Virus record (IMG/VR): IMGVR_UViG_3300017694_000006
Coordinates: 1 to 43,680 of that record
Direction: 5' to 3' (one strand)
Length of the DNA: 43,680 nt
Source of the DNA: a virus
How positions within the stretch are numbered: position 1 is the stretch's first letter; each line of letters begins with the position of its first letter. The notes under the pieces were generated by a model. That model saw nothing but the letters and a program-made list of their open reading frames with translations. It ran no database searches and was not told the origin of the DNA. Made by a program: the position numbers and the translations under genes. This document shows positions 4,928 through 21,071 of this stretch, in pieces.

Positions 4928-5374
4928 ATGCTAGGGACAGCCACCGCTATCGAGAGGCCCCGAGTGACAACGACCACGAAGCAGCAGCGATCCGATCCGC
5001 TAACGCGGCACGTGCGCGACTTCGAAAACTACTCGGCGGCGATGATCGTCCTGGCCGAGAGTGCGCCGGACCGCATGAGCCTGTCGCAGGGGATTTTCTT
5101 TATCCTGACCGCCACTGCCGATCTTGCGGGCAAGGACCCCACGTTCAGCGACATTAAGGAGGCTGTGGGCGACACCGTCAATCGCTCGCTCCACACAACC
5201 TACCGTGTCCTTCTGGAACCCTCGCGGAACTACCCGGATGGCCTTGGTTGGCTCCGCCAGGAACCGAACCCGATGGACGCGCGGCAGAAGTTCCTCCGAC
5301 TGACGCCGAAGGGCAAGTCGGTTCTCAAGGGCATGCTGCACGCCATGAACATCAAGATGGAAGGAGCAAACTGA
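4928..5374 (+). CDS. MarR-family-like winged-helix transcriptional regulator
   Basis: 148 aa. The segment TVNRSLHTTYRVLLE...GLGWLRQEPNPMDARQKFLRLTPKGKSVL has the MarR pattern (recognition helix, wing, D.R...LT.KG). The stop codon overlaps the integrase start. Confidence 0.55.
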   Translation: MLGTATAIERPRVTTTTKQQRSDPLTRHVRDFENYSAAMIVLAESAPDRMSLSQGIFFILTATADLAGKDPTFSDIKEAVGDTVNRSLHTTYRVLLEPSRNYPDGLGWLRQEPNPMDARQKFLRLTPKGKSVLKGMLHAMNIKMEGAN

Positions 5375-7006: not shown

Positions 7007-9499
7007 ATGACCGATTTCCGCGCCCAGCTTCGCCGCCAGATCGACCTTGAAGACGAGCAGCGCGCCCTGGGGCAATCCCGCTATCACTCGCGGGCTCTCC
7101 CGTGGAAAGCCGAAGCGGGCAGCATGGATGAGGAGGCCAACCTCCCGCCCGGCACGCACCTCCTCAAGGCAACCGTCAAGCCCGTGGCCGAGGCAATCGA
7201 GGCGTTCCTGTCCGAAGCGTGCGAGCGCAAGGCAGGGCGGCTGCACCGCGCCGTCGACTTCCTCCTCCTCGCTGAGCCCCAGGAGGTTGCCTATCTTGCG
7301 ACTCGGGTGATGGTGAACCTGTGCATGTCGCAGTCCCTGCTGCAGACGGTGGCCATCAAGGTCACCGACGCGCTCATCGAGAACCTGGAGTTCAAGTCGT
7401 TCCGCGAGATGAACCGGAAGGGGTACAAGGGGTTCCTGAAGGCCCAGGAGGCGAGGGGGTCTTACTCGCGCCAGCGCAAGAGCGCCGTCAAGAAGCTCTT
7501 CCAGCACGAAGGCTGCGCCATCAGCGTATCGCCGGAGGAGCGCGTCTCCATCGGCACGAAGTGCATCGAGCTGGTGATCGAGGCCACAGGCTTCTTCGCG
7601 TTAGAGAAGGTGCGCCGCTCCAACGGCTTCGCCTACAGCCTCCGCCCAACCGAGACGCTGCAGGGCTGGTTCGACAACCAGCACGCCCGCTGCTCGCTGC
7701 TCGACCCCATCAACATGCCCATGGTCGTTCGCCCGCGCCGCTGGCGCTCGCCCACCTACGGCGGCTACCTGACCCCCCGCCACGGGAACCGCTTCATCAA
7801 GCAGCGGAACCAAGCGTACCACCAGGAAGCCCGCCACATGGACCTGTCGAAGGTCTATGACAGCGTGAACCACATCCAGGACACGCCCTGGTCGATCAAC
7901 GTCCGCGTGCTGGAGGTGATGGAGCAGGTATGGGCTGACGGGACCTCCCTCGGGGGCCTTCCGCAACGCGAGGATGACCCTATCCCGGCCAAGCCGGAGG
8001 ACATCGACACCAATGAGGCAGCGAAGAACGCCTGGAAGCGGGCGGCTGCCGAGACCTACGAGACCAACGCGGAGCGTCAGTCGGGCCGCATCGCCATGCA
8101 CTCGGGTCTGTGGGTTGCCCGCAGGTTCGCTGACGAGGGCTCCATCTACTACCCCCACGAACTCGACTTCCGTGGGCGGGTCTATCCCATCCCGGTGTTC
8201 GGCCCGTCACCACAGGGCTGCGACTGGCAGAAGTCGCTCCTGCACTTCTCCGAAGGTGTCCCTCTGGGCCTTGAGGGTTTCCGCTGGCTCTGCATCCACG
8301 TCGCCAACCTCTTCGGGGTCGACAAGGTTTCCTTCCGGGAGCGGGAGAAGTGGGTCACGGACAACCTCCCGGCGCTCATGGACAGCGCACAGAACCCCCT
8401 CGACGGTGACAGGTTCTGGACGACCGCAGACAGCCCCTACAGCGCCCTTGCGGCTCTGTTCGAGCTGAACGACTGCGTTCTGATGGATGACCCCACGGCC
8501 TACGTGTCGCGGGTGCCTGTGGCGCTCGACGGGTCCTGCTCGGGCATCCAGCACTTCTCCGCGATGCTGAGGGATGCCGAGGGTGGCGCTGCGGTCAACC
8601 TGCTGCCCTCGGAGTTCCCGCAGGACATCTACATGCGCGCCGCAGGCAAGGCCCAGGTCATTGCCGACGCCACGCCCTTCATCACCTACACGGTGAAGGA
8701 AGGCGGGGAAGAGCATGATGTGACGATCCCGAACCCGTGGATGAACGGGATGGTCAAGCGGGGGATCGCCAAGCGTCCAACCATGACCTTCTGCTACAGC
8801 GCAACCCGCTTCGGCATGGGCGGCATGATCGTGTCGACCTTGAAGGAGATGGACCGAGACAGGGCAGGGAAGGGCGAGGGCCCGTACCTGGGCGGTGCGG
8901 ACAACTATCACTGCGCCATGTGGCTTTCCCACGTCATGTTTAGTTCCATTAGCGAGACTGTTCCGGCTGCCGCCAAGGCGATGGAGTGGCTCCGCGAGGC
9001 GGCGAAGGTGGCGGCGGAGGGCGGCTTGCCGCTGTGGTGGACGACCCCGATGGGCCTTCCAATCCTCCAGGAGTACAAGGCGCAGAAGGGCGAGCGCGTT
9101 GAGGTTCACTGGATGGGCCAGCGGGTTCGCATGATGGTCCAGAAGGAGACTGAGGACCTCGATGGGCGCGCCCAGGCAAATGGCGTCGCTCCGAACTTCG
9201 TCCACTCACTGGACGCAGCGCACCTCCAGGCCGTGGCGCTCCGCTGCCGGGAAGAGGGGATTGGCCACCTCGCCATGATCCACGACAGCTTCGGCACCCA
9301 CGCGGCCAACACCGCGCGGCTGTCAGCGATCCTCAGGGACACCTTCGTGGAGCAATACGAGGGCGATGTCCTGGGGGACTTCCATGCGGAGCTGAAGGAG
9401 CAGCTGGGAGAGGAGTTGGCAGCCAAGCTGCCGGAGCCTCCGAAGTCCGGGAACCTAGACCTGAACCTCATCCGAGGTGCGTCCTACACGTTCGCCTAA
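7007..9499 (+). CDS. Single-subunit DNA-directed RNA polymerase (T7 gene 1-like)
   Basis: 830 aa. Contains VALDGSCSGIQHFSAM, GVAPNFVHSLDAAHL, AMIHDSFGTH and a C-terminal YTFA (T7 ends FAFA). RBS GGAAGGA. Confidence 0.97.
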   Translation: MTDFRAQLRRQIDLEDEQRALGQSRYHSRALPWKAEAGSMDEEANLPPGTHLLKATVKPVAEAIEAFLSEACERKAGRLHRAVDFLLLAEPQEVAYLATRVMVNLCMSQSLLQTVAIKVTDALIENLEFKSFREMNRKGYKGFLKAQEARGSYSRQRKSAVKKLFQHEGCAISVSPEERVSIGTKCIELVIEATGFFALEKVRRSNGFAYSLRPTETLQGWFDNQHARCSLLDPINMPMVVRPRRWRSPTYGGYLTPRHGNRFIKQRNQAYHQEARHMDLSKVYDSVNHIQDTPWSINVRVLEVMEQVWADGTSLGGLPQREDDPIPAKPEDIDTNEAAKNAWKRAAAETYETNAERQSGRIAMHSGLWVARRFADEGSIYYPHELDFRGRVYPIPVFGPSPQGCDWQKSLLHFSEGVPLGLEGFRWLCIHVANLFGVDKVSFREREKWVTDNLPALMDSAQNPLDGDRFWTTADSPYSALAALFELNDCVLMDDPTAYVSRVPVALDGSCSGIQHFSAMLRDAEGGAAVNLLPSEFPQDIYMRAAGKAQVIADATPFITYTVKEGGEEHDVTIPNPWMNGMVKRGIAKRPTMTFCYSATRFGMGGMIVSTLKEMDRDRAGKGEGPYLGGADNYHCAMWLSHVMFSSISETVPAAAKAMEWLREAAKVAAEGGLPLWWTTPMGLPILQEYKAQKGERVEVHWMGQRVRMMVQKETEDLDGRAQANGVAPNFVHSLDAAHLQAVALRCREEGIGHLAMIHDSFGTHAANTARLSAILRDTFVEQYEGDVLGDFHAELKEQLGEELAAKLPEPPKSGNLDLNLIRGASYTFA
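8944..8961 (+). promoter_or_regulatory. Family-A-like motif TTCCATTAGCGAGACTGT inside the RNAP coding sequence
   Basis: TAGTTCCATTAGC shares the extended upstream TAG seen at 2428, 6805 and 6887. It is weaker in the 3' half and may be fortuitous. Confidence 0.25.
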
Positions 9500-14864: not shown

Positions 14865-15046
14865 TGGCGAAGCCGCAGCGCAAGCCCGTCTCCGCTGGGG
14901 CCCAGCCTCCCCGTGAGCTGATCCGCCGCACCACCGCTATGACCGATGCCATGGTCGACGCCTTCCGCAACGCGGGCCTCGACGTGAGCCGCGCCAAGCT
15001 CCCCGTCAAGCGCGAGACCACATGGTCCGTGACACGTCGGGGCTGA
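14864..15046 (+). CDS. Hypothetical protein (60 aa)
   Basis: TGATG overlap with the upstream gene and high third-position GC. Overlaps the primase start by 25 nt. Confidence 0.4.
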   Translation: MAKPQRKPVSAGAQPPRELIRRTTAMTDAMVDAFRNAGLDVSRAKLPVKRETTWSVTRRG

Positions 15047-16707
15047 GCGAAAGCAGCCTCCTCTACAAGACCAGCTGCCCCAGGGCGGACTGCGGATCAA
15101 GCGATGGGAACGCCGTCTATGATGACGGTCACACTTTCTGCTTCGTCTGTAGCCGCCCCGGGCGTGTCGATGGCGAGGAGGACTACACACCTCCCGCCAA
15201 AGGAAAGCGAATGGCTGGCCTGATAAGCGGCACAGTAGAGGCGATCCCGTCGCGCAAGCTCGACGACCGGGTCTGTCAGAAGTACAACTACCAAGTCGGC
15301 ACCTTCAGCGACAAGAAGTGCCACATCGCGCCGTTCTACGACGCCGAGGGCACGATGGTTGCCCAGAAGGTCCGCCTACCGGGTAAGGACTTCGTGGTCC
15401 TCGGGGACCTCAAGGCATCCCTCCCGCTCTTCGGGCAGCACCTATGCCGGGACGGCGGCAAGATGATCGTGGTCACCGAAGGTGAACTCGACGCCATGTC
15501 CGTGACCCAAGCAATGGGCCTGACGTGGCCCGCCGTCTCGATCCCACAGGGCGCACCTTCGGCCAAGAAGGCAATTGCCAAGGCCCTAGGGTTCCTCGAA
15601 GCGTTCGAGAAGGTCGTCTTCATGTTCGACCAGGACGACGTCGGGCAAGCCGCGATGGCGGACTGCCTGCCTCTCCTGTCCCCCGGCAAGGCCTACGTGG
15701 CCACGCTCCCGGCGGGCATGAAGGACGCCAACGACATGGTCAAAGCGGCCCGCTCCAAGGAGCTGGTCGACGCCATCTGGGGCGCGCGCAAGTACGTGCC
15801 GGAAGTCCTCAACGACATCGACGACGAACTGATCGACGATGCCTGTGAGGAGCAGGGCTGGGGGCTTCCCTGGCCCTACGTGTCGATGACCAAGGCGACC
15901 TACGGTATCCTTCGGGGCTGTGTGTACACCTGGGGAGCTGGCACGGGCTCTGGCAAGACCACCCTAATGCGGATGCTCATGGCTACGGCCATGCGTCCCG
16001 AGCTTGGCGAGGATCACTCGGAGTTCATGCCGATGCCCGCGCCGAGACCTGTTGGCACCATCCTGTACGAGGAGCCGCTGAAGCGGACCCTCAAGAACCT
16101 CGCGGGCCTCGTCATGAGGCAGCGCATCCACGTGCCCGGCACCGAGTACGACAAGGATGAGGCGAAGCGGATTATGAAGGAGCTGCGGCCTCTTCTGAAG
16201 TCCATCTCGCTCAAGGGCGCTCGGGACTGGGATGCCGTCAAGAACACCATCAGGTATCTTAACGCCTCCGAGGGCGTCGAGGACTTCGTGATCGACCCGA
16301 TGACCGCGCTCACTGCGGGCATCGAGAACGAGCGGCAGGCCCTTGACGGTATCATGTCCGACATGGCCGAGCTGGCCGAGGACTTGGACATCACAATCCA
16401 CCTCGTCTTCCACTTGGCGACCCCCGAAGGGAAGAGCCATGAGGATGGCGGGCGGGTGCAGGAGAAGCACTTCCGGGGCTCCCGCGCCGTCGCGTTCTGG
16501 TCGCACTTCCTGTTCGGCCTTGAGCGGAACAAGCAGGACCCCGACTGCCCCACGATCATCCGAGGTCTGAAGGATCGCCCAACCGGCGATGCCATCGGGC
16601 CGTTCATTGCGCTCACCTACGACAAAGCGACGGGCCACATGGTCGAAGTCGAGATGCCGGAGGATGGCGAGCGCCCCTTCAAGAACGAGGAGGACAATGA
16701 CCTCTAA
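15022..16707 (+). CDS. Bifunctional DNA primase/helicase (T7 gp4-like)
   Basis: Zinc motif CPRADCGSSDGNAVYDDGHTFCFVC, TOPRIM motif IVVTEGELDAMSV and Walker A GAGTGSGKTT. The acidic C-terminal end resembles T7 gp4. Confidence 0.95.
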   Translation: MVRDTSGLSESSLLYKTSCPRADCGSSDGNAVYDDGHTFCFVCSRPGRVDGEEDYTPPAKGKRMAGLISGTVEAIPSRKLDDRVCQKYNYQVGTFSDKKCHIAPFYDAEGTMVAQKVRLPGKDFVVLGDLKASLPLFGQHLCRDGGKMIVVTEGELDAMSVTQAMGLTWPAVSIPQGAPSAKKAIAKALGFLEAFEKVVFMFDQDDVGQAAMADCLPLLSPGKAYVATLPAGMKDANDMVKAARSKELVDAIWGARKYVPEVLNDIDDELIDDACEEQGWGLPWPYVSMTKATYGILRGCVYTWGAGTGSGKTTLMRMLMATAMRPELGEDHSEFMPMPAPRPVGTILYEEPLKRTLKNLAGLVMRQRIHVPGTEYDKDEAKRIMKELRPLLKSISLKGARDWDAVKNTIRYLNASEGVEDFVIDPMTALTAGIENERQALDGIMSDMAELAEDLDITIHLVFHLATPEGKSHEDGGRVQEKHFRGSRAVAFWSHFLFGLERNKQDPDCPTIIRGLKDRPTGDAIGPFIALTYDKATGHMVEVEMPEDGERPFKNEEDNDL

Positions 16708-17714: not shown

Positions 17715-19694
17715 TTGCTCATATACGACATCGAGACGAACGGGCTGCTCGACGAGCTGGACCGCGTCCACACCCTACACATTCTTGAGACTGCCACCGG
17801 CATCCGCCTAAGGTTCAACGACGGCTTCTTCGCTGACGGCAGCCCGGCACCGCGTCACGGCAGCATCGCAGACGGCTTGCGCCTCCTGATGAAGGCCCGC
17901 CGCATCTGCGGTCACAACGTCATCTCATTCGATAACCCGGCGATCACCAAGGTCTACCCGTGGTTCAAGCTGCGGCCCGACTGCATCGTCGAAGACACGA
18001 TGGTCTGGGCCCGGCTTATCTGGCCGCACATCAAGGAAATCGACGCCAAGTGGATGAAGTCGGGCAGGCTGCCTGCGGACTTCGCCAAGCAGAAGCTGAT
18101 GGGCACCCACAAGCTCAAGGCCTGGGGCATCCGCTTGGGTGTCCTGAAGGCTGACTACGAGGGAGAGTGGGACCTCTTCACGCAGGAGATGGAAGAGTAC
18201 GCTGCACAGGACCCGGTCACGACTTTGGCGCTGTGGCGCAAGATCGTGGAGAAGGGCTTCGCGCCTGAGGCCGTGCGGCTTGAGCATGACGTTCAGGCGA
18301 TCATTCACCTGCAGCAGCGGTTCGGCTTCAAGTTCGACCGTGAGGCAGCCGAGAAGCTGGAGTGGGTCCTGCGGGCCCGTAAGGCTGAACTTGAGGACGA
18401 ACTCCGCGCTGCCTTCAAGCCCTGGTACAAGCCGGAGCGCAAGGGTGGCAAGATCGTCGAGCTGACCCCGAAGAACAGCAACCGGCGGTTCAATCACACC
18501 GCAGGCTGGACGTTCTCCAAGGTCAAGCTGGTCTCCTTCAATCCCGGCAGTCGCCCTCAAATCTCCGAGCGGCTCATCGAGCTGTACGGGTGGATACCTG
18601 TCGAGTTCACTGACAGCGGCGCACCGAAGGTCGACGAAACGACCCTCGGCTCTCTCGACCACATCCCAGCAGCGCGCCTGCTGGTCGACTACCTGACCGT
18701 CGACAAGCGGCTCGGCCAGTTGGCCGAGGGCGACAATGCCTGGATGAAGATGGTCGCAGCGGACGGACGTATCCACGGGTACGTCAACACGCTCGGCGCG
18801 ATCACCCGAAGGATGACCCACTCGGGTCCTAACATGGCCCAGGTGCCGTCCTTGGTGAACGCCAGGGGCACGGTGCCATACGGCAAGGAGTGCCGGTCTC
18901 TCTTCGTCGTGGCGAAAGCTCGCTTGCTCTGTGGCGTGGACGCCGAGGGCTTGGAGCTGCGGAAACTCGCCCACTACATGGCGAAGTACGACGGTGGGGC
19001 TTACGCCGACACGGTCGTCAACGGCAAGCGCGAGGACGGCTCTGACGTCCACACGGTAAACCAGCGGCTTATCCGCCTCAACGCCCGCAACTCGGCCAAG
19101 ACCTGGATTTACGCCTACCTTTACGGCGCTGGCCTGCTGAAGCTCGGCATGGTCATCTACGAAGACTTCACCCCGGCGCAGCGCGAGGCCTTCAACGCCA
19201 AGCACCCGGCGGGCAAGTTGCGCGAGAGCGCCATCGCACGGCTAGGCAAGCAGGCGAGGGTGCGCGTTGAGGGCGGTCTTCCTGCGCTCGGCCAACTGCA
19301 AACCAAAATCAAGCGGCTCGCCGCCTCTGGTTTCCTGAAGAGCGTGGACGGCTCACTTCTTCGCGTCCGGTCTCCGCACGCAGCGTTGAACACCCTACTT
19401 CAGGGCGGAGGCGCTATCGTCATGAAGAAGGCGCTGGTGATCCTCTTCAACCGGCTACTCGCCGATGGCTGGGTCGCTGACCCAGTGACCGGCGCGCTGA
19501 CGCGAGACGGGGAGGTGATGGGCTTCGTCGCGAACATCCACGACGAGTTCCAGATGGAAGTACCCGAACACCTCGCGAAGGAAATCGGTCAGATGGGCAA
19601 GGACGCGATCCGGGATGCTGGTATCGAGTTCGACCTCCGCTGCCCGCTCGCGGGTTCATGCGACATCGGCCACAACTGGGCGGAAGCCCATTAA
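17715..19694 (+). CDS. DNA polymerase (family A, T7 gp5-like)
   Basis: TTG start after GGGAG. Exo I motif LIYDIETNGL, motif B-like SAKTWIYAYLYGAG and motif C-like ANIHDEFQ. Confidence 0.95.
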   Translation: MLIYDIETNGLLDELDRVHTLHILETATGIRLRFNDGFFADGSPAPRHGSIADGLRLLMKARRICGHNVISFDNPAITKVYPWFKLRPDCIVEDTMVWARLIWPHIKEIDAKWMKSGRLPADFAKQKLMGTHKLKAWGIRLGVLKADYEGEWDLFTQEMEEYAAQDPVTTLALWRKIVEKGFAPEAVRLEHDVQAIIHLQQRFGFKFDREAAEKLEWVLRARKAELEDELRAAFKPWYKPERKGGKIVELTPKNSNRRFNHTAGWTFSKVKLVSFNPGSRPQISERLIELYGWIPVEFTDSGAPKVDETTLGSLDHIPAARLLVDYLTVDKRLGQLAEGDNAWMKMVAADGRIHGYVNTLGAITRRMTHSGPNMAQVPSLVNARGTVPYGKECRSLFVVAKARLLCGVDAEGLELRKLAHYMAKYDGGAYADTVVNGKREDGSDVHTVNQRLIRLNARNSAKTWIYAYLYGAGLLKLGMVIYEDFTPAQREAFNAKHPAGKLRESAIARLGKQARVRVEGGLPALGQLQTKIKRLAASGFLKSVDGSLLRVRSPHAALNTLLQGGGAIVMKKALVILFNRLLADGWVADPVTGALTRDGEVMGFVANIHDEFQMEVPEHLAKEIGQMGKDAIRDAGIEFDLRCPLAGSCDIGHNWAEAH

Positions 19695-19700
19695 GGAAGA

Positions 19701-20126
19701 ATGACCCCTCGCATCCAACGCGAGCCGGGGGCCTACTGCGCAGAGAGAGCCATCCTCACTCGGGCCCGTTCGCGGGCTCGGGAAAAGGGTGTGCCTTTCT
19801 CGCTCACGTACCTCGACATCGTTATCCCCGACCGCTGCCCCATACTTGGGATCAAGCTGGAGCGGGGCACTAGCGGCGGGCTCGACAGCTCACCGTCTCT
19901 CGACCGCATCATCCCCGCGCTCGGCTACGTGCCGGGCAACGTGAGAGTGATCGCCAACCGCGCGAACAGGATCAAGTCGGACAGCACCCCCGAGGAGCTG
20001 TCCCGCATCCTCACCTACGTCCTCGAAAACGACCCCAACAACGCCAAGCGCCGAAGGAGGCCTCATGCGAAAACTTCTAAGGACAATGCTTCGCTGGCTG
20101 CGTCTTCTGACGTCCAGTCGAGATAA
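19701..20126 (+). CDS. Free-standing HNH/His-Me-finger-like endonuclease, paralog 2
   Basis: VPFSLTYLDIVIPDRCPILGIKL...SPSLDRIIPALGYVPGNVRVIANRANRIK. Lies immediately downstream of the DNA polymerase gene. Confidence 0.55.
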   Translation: MTPRIQREPGAYCAERAILTRARSRAREKGVPFSLTYLDIVIPDRCPILGIKLERGTSGGLDSSPSLDRIIPALGYVPGNVRVIANRANRIKSDSTPEELSRILTYVLENDPNNAKRRRRPHAKTSKDNASLAASSDVQSR

Positions 20127-20316
20127 TCAGACCCCGGATATAATCCGCATCGGGTCCATACTCTTCGGCATGTGGGCTCTCGGGCTCACCGCCTGGGACG
20201 TGCTAGTCCTGAACCATCAGTTCGACATGCTCAACTACAGCGGCGGCGTGGCAGCGATCCTGACCTCGACCGGCGCGGCGCTGGGCCTCAAGCGCAAGGA
20301 CGAACCTGAAGCATGA
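20065..20316 (+). CDS. Two-TM small membrane protein, a holin candidate
   Basis: 83 aa with TM segments IIRIGSILFGMWALGLTAW and GGVAAILTSTGAALGL and a charged C-terminus KRKDEPEA. GGAGG lies upstream. Overlaps the tail of the HNH gene. Confidence 0.4.
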   Translation: MRKLLRTMLRWLRLLTSSRDNQTPDIIRIGSILFGMWALGLTAWDVLVLNHQFDMLNYSGGVAAILTSTGAALGLKRKDEPEA

Positions 20317-21071
20317 CGCTTCAGACCCTCGACCTCTTCGCAGGGGTCGGGGGCTTCTCCCTCGGTCTCGAAAGGACCGGCGGGTTCCGCACCTCAGCCT
20401 TCTGCGAAATCGACCCCGCCGCCCGGCGCGTACTCAACAAAAACTGGCCGGAAGTGCCGGTGTTCGAGGATGTCGCGCAGCTCACCAAGGAAAACTTCGA
20501 TGTCCCTGTCGACGTCATCACTGGCGGGTTCCCCTGTCAGGACATATCATTCGCCCGAACCGGAAGCGGCAAGGGACTCGGGCTCGCCCTCGCGGGTGCC
20601 CGCTCGGGCTTGTGGTTCCAGTTCCGCCGACTCATCTCCGAGTACCGCCCGCGCTTCGCGATCATCGAAAACGTCTCTGCCCTGCGAACTCGGGGACTGG
20701 ACGTCGTCCTCAGCGGGCTCGCTGCGCTCGGGTATGATGCGGAGTGGCACTGTATACCCGCTGGAGCCGTTGGCGCTCCTCAACGCAGGGACCGGGTGTG
20801 GGTCGTTGCCTACACCTGCGGCTCGGGACTTTCGGGACCTCTCCTCAGCGGGAGTTCCTTACCCCTCACAGCTCCGCCGCAACTCTCCCAGCTTGGCGAC
20901 CTTACTGTACAAAGCGGGGCTTGCTGGCCCTCTCATTCCACAGCTCTACGAGTGGGTGATGGGCTTCCCGATTGGCCACACCGCCTGAAGCAGATGGGCA
21001 ACGCTGTTGTCCCCGCCATTCCCGAGATGATCGGGAGAGCAATCCTCAGATACCTGAAGGAAAACCCATGA
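20313..21071 (+). CDS. dcm: DNA (cytosine-5)-methyltransferase. The region between motif VIII and motif X looks frame-disrupted
   Basis: Motif I DLFAGVGGFS, motif IV GGFPCQDIS, motif VI IIENV, motif VIII QRRDRVWVVA and motif X GNAVVP are in this frame. LPTPAARD and YEWVMGFPIGHT are in the +1 frame (ORF 20470..20988). Confidence 0.8.
   Translation: MTLQTLDLFAGVGGFSLGLERTGGFRTSAFCEIDPAARRVLNKNWPEVPVFEDVAQLTKENFDVPVDVITGGFPCQDISFARTGSGKGLGLALAGARSGLWFQFRRLISEYRPRFAIIENVSALRTRGLDVVLSGLAALGYDAEWHCIPAGAVGAPQRRDRVWVVAYTCGSGLSGPLLSGSSLPLTAPPQLSQLGDLTVQSGACWPSHSTALRVGDGLPDWPHRLKQMGNAVVPAIPEMIGRAILRYLKENP

Follow-up and report, generated by a model that had tools for sequence, protein, structure and literature searches.

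A putative two-polypeptide C5-cytosine methyltransferase encoded in two overlapping reading frames of a T7-like phage

Lee, Kam & Shaw are said to have described M.EcoHK31I in 1995 as a heterodimeric C5-methyltransferase. This naturally heterodimeric enzyme of Escherichia coli HK31, which recognises YGGCCR, has its beta chain encoded wholly within the alpha gene, in a different frame; motifs I-VIII and X are on alpha, motif IX is on beta, and both chains are required (PMC2836561, PMC3404938). Beta can partly do without its N-terminal part, and Met codons inside it are usable as starts (PMC2836561, PMC3404938). A natural two-polypeptide C5-methyltransferase is also known in M.AquI (CYCGRG), which is split around the variable region (PMC3404938). 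Literature searches on the motifs and on phage nested methyltransferases returned nothing beyond these two enzymes. The locus considered here is a cytosine methyltransferase gene at positions 20313-21071 of a viral sequence of 43,680 nucleotides (IMG/VR record IMGVR_UViG_3300017694_000006), the whole of which is called the window below. A preliminary description of this sequence had noticed that the conserved methyltransferase motifs are distributed over two reading frames, and had proposed three explanations: a double-frameshifted enzyme with a scrambled target-recognition domain, two sequencing errors, or expression through recoding.

The comparison with homologous genes favours a fourth explanation. 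With a probability of about 0.72, the locus would be a two-polypeptide C5-methyltransferase produced from two overlapping frames, with the architecture of M.EcoHK31I. The frame-0 product, alpha, would be the catalytic large domain, made of motifs I-VIII, a tether of about 57 residues and motif X, the tether sequence being largely a by-product of the other frame. A second chain, beta, would be translated in the +1 frame from its own internal start, probably over 20500-20988, and would supply the recognition segment that alpha lacks (PTPxARD / PTLA type), presumably with target recognition, together with a canonical motif IX. The two chains are expected to assemble into one active enzyme. Four features are shown by the sequences themselves: both frames are kept open, the selection phase passes from frame 0 to +1 and then returns, the overlap has constrained synonymous sites, and the arrangement recurs family-wide. 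As judged from the sequences, this layout appears to be that of a conserved second gene, nested throughout the family in the +1 frame of the phage cytosine-methyltransferase gene. The features of the locus, all on the plus strand, are as follows.

20313-21071, plus strand: alpha open reading frame (ORF), frame 0, 252 aa; C5-cytosine methyltransferase large domain with motifs I-VIII, tether and motif X (ORF list, Pfam, PHROG, AlphaFold2, Foldseek).
20337-20354, plus strand: motif I (FAGVGG) of frame 0, not overlapped by beta; third-base entropy near maximal.
20470-20988, plus strand: beta ORF, +1 frame, 172 aa from its first ATG, stop codon TGA at 20986-20988; wholly inside alpha.
20487-20502, plus strand: probable beta start, AAGGA at 20487-20491, an 8-nt spacer and ATG at 20500-20502, which would give 162 aa.
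20526-20543, plus strand: motif IV, GFPCQD, with the catalytic Cys, frame 0; the same DNA reads SLAGSPVRTY in the +1 frame.
20667-20813, plus strand: motifs VI-VIII (ENV ... GYDAEW ... QRRDRVWVVAY), frame 0, dual-coded with beta (...SGMMRSGTVYPLEPL...).
20806-20907, plus strand: beta recognition-region signatures, LPTPAARDFRD at 20806-20838 and RRNSPSLATLL at 20875-20907; putative target-recognition domain.
20814-20981, plus strand: alpha tether, frame-0 residues 168-223; stop-free, with little amino-acid constraint.
20932-20985, plus strand: beta motif IX, LIPQLYEWVMGFPIGHTA, containing EWVMGFPIGHT.
20982-21014, plus strand: motif X and its lead-in, RLKQMGNAVVP, frame 0; normal frame-0 substitution pattern.

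The coordinates and motifs first reported for the long frame (I, IV, VI, VIII and X within an open 20313-21071) are confirmed, ENV lying at 20667-20675, QRRDRVWVVAY at 20781-20813 and GNAVVP at 20997-21014 (alpha residues 229-234). Alpha shows the features of a C5-cytosine DNA methyltransferase, namely motifs I (FxGxGG), IV (PCQ), VI (ENV), VIII (QxRxR) and X (GNxV) and the catalytic-domain fold. It also has the motif set of the large chain in a nested two-polypeptide enzyme, with motifs I-VIII plus X, and without motif IX. It matches PHROG 363 (E 4.6e-65) and the Pfam family PF00145 (E 1e-41), the latter over residues 4-169 only, which correspond to profile positions 2-163 of 324; the last 60 aa of frame 0 have no Pfam match. 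Alignments with methyltransferases of the PDB cover mainly residues 3-167 and reach about residue 224 at most. In an AlphaFold2 model built from a 106-sequence alignment, the predicted local distance difference test (pLDDT) is 84-98 at residues 1-170, the catalytic loop excepted, and at residues 230-252. It falls to 34-46 at residues 173-229 despite that alignment, so that this segment is predicted to be disordered. The top Foldseek matches of the model are the catalytic domains of M.HhaI, M.HaeIII, DNMT1 and MET1 (E about 1e-14, 170-200 columns). The 57 frame-0 codons separating motif VIII from motif X had been read as low-complexity sequence, and their translation bears this out.

The +1 ORF at 20470-20988, which translates to ...SLPTPAARDFRD...LIPQLYEWVMGFPIGHTA before its stop, contains the PTPxAxD and motif IX signatures already pointed out in the preliminary description, and the nucleotides encoding VVAY in frame 0 do overlap those encoding LPTP in +1. 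The resemblance is real and far beyond chance, as indicated by tblastn, by PHROG 1008 and by profile clusters. A 69-aa +1 peptide matched 76 phage records by tblastn (best E 3e-6), and the matches listed all lie beneath genes annotated as DNA or cytosine methyltransferase. PHROG 1008 is matched by the window beta (E 5.2e-9) and by the +1 ORFs of Stenotrophomonas phage SOVA965 (6e-21) and of a Paenibacillus phage (8e-74). An exhaustive HMMER search with the window +1 ORF retrieved 1313 representative clusters at E<=1e-3, all of 97-344 aa, in which the match begins near the N-terminus; these are stand-alone ORF calls and not fusions, and among the best 150 of the 1313 representatives none joins a catalytic domain and beta in one frame. 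Motifs of the forms [LW]PTPxA(R)D(Y/W)K and RN(T/S)PTLA recur in the +1 frame of the homologues. We take [LW]PTPxARD[YW]K and RN[TS]PTLA to resemble the TL motif of M.HhaI-type recognition domains, a lead only, the comparison of the beta profile with PDB sequences being negative. PF00145 is matched by 8 of the 102 members of the beta alignment. In a few of the cluster representatives (P0149, P0160 and P0184) the first 22-70 alpha residues, with motif I (PF00145 profile 1-22, 1-52 and 2-70), stand in frame with beta; these joins are either natural indel variants or assembly errors.

A word-indexed search with frame 0 gave 7982 homologues, the closest of which have 235-290 aa, cover 96-100% of frame 0 and show identities of 83%, 74%, 72% and lower. 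The sets drawn from phage and metagenome sequences of different projects hold 72-140 genes depending on the test, with guanine plus cytosine (GC) fractions of 0.41-0.67. By blastn, the gene gave only two short matches in phage records and none in complete E. coli genomes. Beta lies wholly inside alpha in the +1 frame in 74 of 74 genes, and then in at least 140 independent genes. In SOVA965 (PP079418.1) the frame-0 and +1 ORFs have 241 and 210 aa, and in Paenibacillus phage vB_PlaS-1/A (GC 0.47) 346 and 234 aa, with a tblastn match in +1 in both. As to annotation, GenBank labels only a +1 fragment of SOVA965 (922-1422) as 'DNA-cytosine methyltransferase'; the 241-aa alpha ORF (L001:720-1445), with all catalytic motifs, is unannotated.

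These homologues bear on the idea that the window has two frameshifts of its own, or contains a pair of errors from sequencing or assembly, for which nothing speaks beyond the look of a single sequence. They are colinear with frame 0 across 20820-20985, an observation that the preliminary description had itself set against its reading, with W205, R213 and G217 invariant. The deletion once placed at about 20805-20815 and the compensating indel at about 20983-20988 are not confirmed: the homologues have their frames arranged alike, and no indel separates them from the window. That the same arrangement recurs in at least 140 independent genes of phages and metagenomes makes a defect of this one contig scarcely credible, and both the double-frameshifted enzyme and the pair of sequencing errors are refuted. 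What survives of the original three-way interpretation is that the motif IX and PTPxAxD signatures in +1 need explaining; recoding, its third option, is disfavoured by the evidence given below, and a nested gene had not been considered.

A different objection is that the +1 ORF could be an untranslated shadow of a conserved frame-0 protein. The +1 motifs upstream of motif VIII (EDSPAKTS-like and SGMMRNG) are indeed the frame-shifted GGFPCQDIS and IGYDAEW, and frame-0 conservation would partly keep them. Stop codons can be used to separate the two possibilities. Over the gene, the longest stop-free run has a median of 224 codons in +1 versus 55 in +2 (74 genes). When the frame-0 protein is held fixed and synonymous codons are resampled, 72 genes give the following numbers of +1 stops.

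Alpha residues 1-52: 183 observed, 147 expected.
Alpha residues 66-118: 11 observed, 134 expected.
Alpha residues 119-166: 1 observed, 122 expected.
Tail, residues 228-245: 129 observed, 85 expected.

Over residues 66-166 combined, 12 stops are thus observed versus 256 expected, the flanks showing no depletion, and in the +2 frame of the same 72 genes observed and expected numbers are about equal throughout. In the converse test, in which the +1 protein of the middle is fixed and codons are resampled, 19 frame-0 stops are observed, 18 of them in one gene (L065), versus 256 expected. Taken together, both tests indicate that frames 0 and +1 are actively kept open, and only over the overlap. A mere shadow does not account for a depletion that is specific to +1 and to residues 66-224 and that persists even at GC 0.41-0.47.

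The pattern of substitutions changes along the gene in a corresponding way. Rates at frame-0 codon positions 1, 2 and 3, obtained from 52 independent pairs, are as follows.

N-terminus: 0.145, 0.092 and 0.454.
Motifs IV-V: 0.158, 0.102 and 0.359.
Motifs VI-VIII: 0.158, 0.068 and 0.251.
Middle: 0.364, 0.259 and 0.259.
Tail: 0.154, 0.057 and 0.466.

In the middle, the maximum lies at frame-0 position 1, which is position 3 of the +1 frame, and 703 changes are synonymous only in +1 versus 434 only in frame 0, a ratio that is reversed in the flanks. Motif IX follows the same rule: in the +1 frame of 131 genes its residues are almost invariant (M in 131, G in 131, F or Y in 130, P in 130, E in 126) while third bases are free, and the frame-0 column at this motif (D 47, H 41, N 35, Y 8) is simply NAT. 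The substitution phase and the motif IX pattern together indicate that the stretch flagged in the preliminary description is functionally read in +1, frame 0 being there mostly a stop-free passenger. At conserved frame-0 columns, third-base entropy is near maximal at residues 6-53 and 228-244 and collapses only at residues 120-224, where particular codons are held: GGG for G140 (66/69), TAT for Y141 (55/66), GCT for A150 (56/67), GCC for A166 (57/66), xGA for R213 and GGG for G217 (66/70). With frame-0 synonymous sites constrained in this way, and with frame 0 itself behaving as the shadow in the middle, the untranslated-shadow explanation becomes very improbable. Stop depletion, synonymous-site constraint and the switch of substitution phase all show both frames to be under selection, and translation of both is thereby indicated indirectly.

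The window itself follows the +1 frame in the overlap, both in its codons and in its GC phase. Within alpha codons 139-150 it uses the family-conserved GGG, TAT, GAT, ATA and GCT, exactly the codons required to spell SGMMRSGTVYPL in +1 and minority codons in this 63% GC phage (TAT 56 of 255 Tyr codons, ATA 22 of 398 Ile codons). The GC fractions at frame-0 positions 1, 2 and 3 run as follows.

Gene start: 0.63, 0.48 and 0.83.
20667-20810: 0.79, 0.54 and 0.65.
20811-20984: 0.67, 0.64 and 0.55.
After 20984: back to 0.57, 0.36 and 0.71.
Phage-wide, by codon position: 0.66, 0.48 and 0.77.

The way in which beta would be produced can be approached through its start signals. In the window, ATG 20500 is preceded by AAGGA at the spacing seen in real window genes, for example those starting at 4928, 7007 and 21715; ATG 20470 has no Shine-Dalgarno-like site at proper spacing, and further +1-frame ATGs lie at 20734 and 20737. 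The +1-frame ATGs of the homologues are concentrated in two places, namely alpha residues 51-53, 63 and 67, shortly ahead of motif IV, and residues 141/142. Such an ATG is found at alpha residues 40-75 in 118 of 140 genes, and in 65 of these 118 it has a Shine-Dalgarno-like site 4-11 nt upstream, the criterion having a per-position background of 12.9% and being passed by 54 of the 140 alpha starts. From motif IX to the beta stop, an X_XXY_YYZ slippery heptamer for a -1 shift, in register, occurs in none of 131 genes.

These data can be set against programmed recoding, in which the ribosome would shift to +1 just after motif VIII (about 20805-20815) and return near 20983-20988, giving one single-chain enzyme. 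The attraction of this scheme is that the composite is a textbook C5-methyltransferase (I-VIII, PTPxARD, motif IX, KQxGNAVVP) and that the selection phase switches at exactly the proposed shift borders. However, the +1 stops are depleted about 12- to 100-fold from alpha residue 66, far upstream of the proposed shift, and constraint on synonymous sites sets in at about residue 120, upstream of it as well, the +1 frame being open from about 100 codons before the junction where a shift would be needed. Recoding would not need frame 0 to stay open across the middle, as it does. Neither a slippery site nor a dispensable downstream zero frame, the hallmarks of programmed -1/+1 frameshifting, is seen at this locus: the heptamer is absent at the return junction in all 131 genes, and at the entry frame 0 has neither a stop nor a conserved hungry codon. 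A review of frameshifting, which includes no DNA methyltransferase case, offers no precedent for a gene of bacteria or phages with two shifts (PMC5009743). Recoding is consequently considered unlikely. The start signals, the stop depletion, the selection phase and the lack of a heptamer rather favour independent initiation of beta from its own ATG and Shine-Dalgarno-like site. A frameshift pair of ancient origin, common to the whole family, was rejected as well, because openness and constraint of the +1 frame extend upstream of motif VIII.

A variant of the layout helps to identify the +1 motif. In L056:1498-2544 (GC 0.44) the +1 ORF holds only SGMM...LLPTP...MLPTPTASD...FFPTPTSRDYKD; motif IX (RLNPDWVEWLMGYPISWTD) is in frame 0 with GNSVVP, and about 125 junk-like codons of frame 0 are still free of stops. 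Relative to the window's type, the frame junction is displaced. With Pfam, the whole L056 protein aligns to positions 2-322 of the 324 of PF00145, and its C-terminal piece alone to 277-322. This alignment identifies the +1-frame motif of the window type as the canonical motif IX. It can also be read in favour of recoding, motif IX being in frame with motif X in a protein that then spans the family profile. Since beta holds both the selection signal and the conserved motifs of recognition type, this chain may well be the whole small domain.

Beta could also be a translated protein that is not a methyltransferase subunit at all, for example a regulator or an unrelated overprinted phage protein, alpha alone being a minimal enzyme of low specificity. 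No Pfam or NCBIfam family is matched by the beta ORF of the window or by those of SOVA965 and the Paenibacillus phage, the profile finds no PDB match, the atlas neighbours of beta are 'hypothetical protein' clusters, and AlphaFold2 confidence is low for most of the chain. Such a role fits poorly with a near-invariant motif IX that is present in beta and absent from alpha, and that L056 places at PF00145 277-322. The middle of alpha is disordered and unconstrained, which would leave alpha alone without a recognition domain or motif IX, and the same layout corresponds to a functional heterodimer in M.EcoHK31I. A non-subunit beta is for these reasons regarded as improbable.

Several points nevertheless weigh against the two-chain enzyme. 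The members of the gene sets are mutually related, which leaves the statistics short of full independence, although most of the set is saturated at synonymous sites. The beta profile gives nothing at E<=10 against PDB sequences, Foldseek finds no fold match for the beta model, and AlphaFold2 (102 sequences) is confident only for residues 141-172 (pLDDT 86-88, two helices ending in MGFP), most of beta having a pLDDT of 50-66. Given these fold results, the identification of beta as the small domain relies on its motifs and on how Pfam aligns L056. Nor is the tether entirely free: W205, present in 69% of 131 genes and in at least 90% of closer relatives, and the E-P that often follows it look mildly constrained in frame 0 beyond the demands of +1; in the window (20919-20960) the W is present and the E-P absent (WPSHS). 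The layout also has exceptions, with motif IX in frame 0 in L056 and no motif X in L065. In L065:584-1688, frame 0 ends right after motif VIII with many stops beyond, the +1 ORF runs for 307 codons to ...LNPTWVEWLMGYPEDYT and its stop, and no GNAV motif is found downstream in any frame; L065 is a copy that has decayed or else an alpha/beta pair lacking motif X.

One further homologue, L044:1688-2599, has a beta with a Cys/His-rich C-terminal extension of about 110 aa (CxxC...HH...CxxCH-like) in the +1 frame, under which frame 0 is open and repeats the W..EP..RVAHGVP segment. By eye the extension looked HNH-like; Pfam gave only a sub-threshold DUF6076 match (E 0.0035), and this resemblance is not used as evidence.

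Around the gene, the window is T7-like, with a single-subunit RNA polymerase (7007-9499), a T7-type primase-helicase (15022-16707) and a family A DNA polymerase (17889-19694), and the methyltransferase gene is located in the replication module. No restriction enzyme was recognised among the neighbours scanned. The two ORFs immediately upstream, 19701-20126 and 20065-20316, overlap each other by about 60 nt. One encodes a 141-aa protein with no Pfam match, whose SLDRI...GY..GNV...AN..K pattern is HNH-like by eye only; the other encodes an 83-aa hydrophobic protein.

Beyond this single locus, the balance tips modestly towards a whole clade of short phage C5-methyltransferases that would be obligately two-chain, with the entire small domain in the +1 frame under a disordered alpha tether. 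Such a clade would comprise thousands of alpha genes, with beta represented by the 1313 clusters at 50% identity that lack a Pfam or NCBIfam model. The overlaps, of about 160-300 codons, would be among the longest and most widespread conserved same-strand overlapping genes in double-stranded DNA phages. Annotation would be systematically wrong, with alpha alone, beta alone or both called 'methyltransferase', and with a frame junction that shifts between lineages (L056, L065). Single-frame annotation makes the gene look broken or 'short', and Paenibacillus phages carry one or two 'methyltransferase' coding sequences; once the nested layout is known, calls of a pseudogene, a frameshift or recoding can be averted. 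If the recognition part resides in beta, as proposed, predicting the methylation specificity of phages (anti-restriction) would need the beta frame. An overlap of 160-300 codons kept at GC 0.41-0.67 also constitutes a large natural data set on two proteins sharing the same DNA.

Compared with the known systems, the layout generalises M.EcoHK31I, previously known as a single oddity. The likeness is one of architecture only, compared by description, and does not imply common descent. The dispensable N-terminus and internal starts of M.EcoHK31I beta have a parallel here in the weak constraint on the first 60 or so beta codons and in the several +1 ATGs. In contrast to M.EcoHK31I, the window gene stands as an orphan within the replication module of its T7-like phage, and its alpha is shorter, with 252 aa. 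Moreover, the recognition domain of M.EcoHK31I is predicted in alpha, whereas in the window it is beta that holds the recognition-type motifs and the selection signal, and the middle of alpha is disordered. In M.AquI, motifs IX and X are both on the small subunit, which comes after the large one, whereas here motif X is on alpha and beta is nested. A split of the M.AquI type is not what is found in the window, where motif X is continuous with alpha and beta either stops short of it or crosses it in another frame. The monomeric enzymes M.HhaI and M.HaeIII (PF00145) share motifs I, IV, VI, VIII and X with alpha, whose model superposes on their catalytic domain; unlike in these C5-methyltransferases, the putative recognition domain and motif IX of the window lie outside the reading frame of alpha. 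In PHROG, families 363 (alpha) and 1008 (beta) are listed as unrelated under the same name, 'DNA methyltransferase', and the overlap of their frames is unrecorded.

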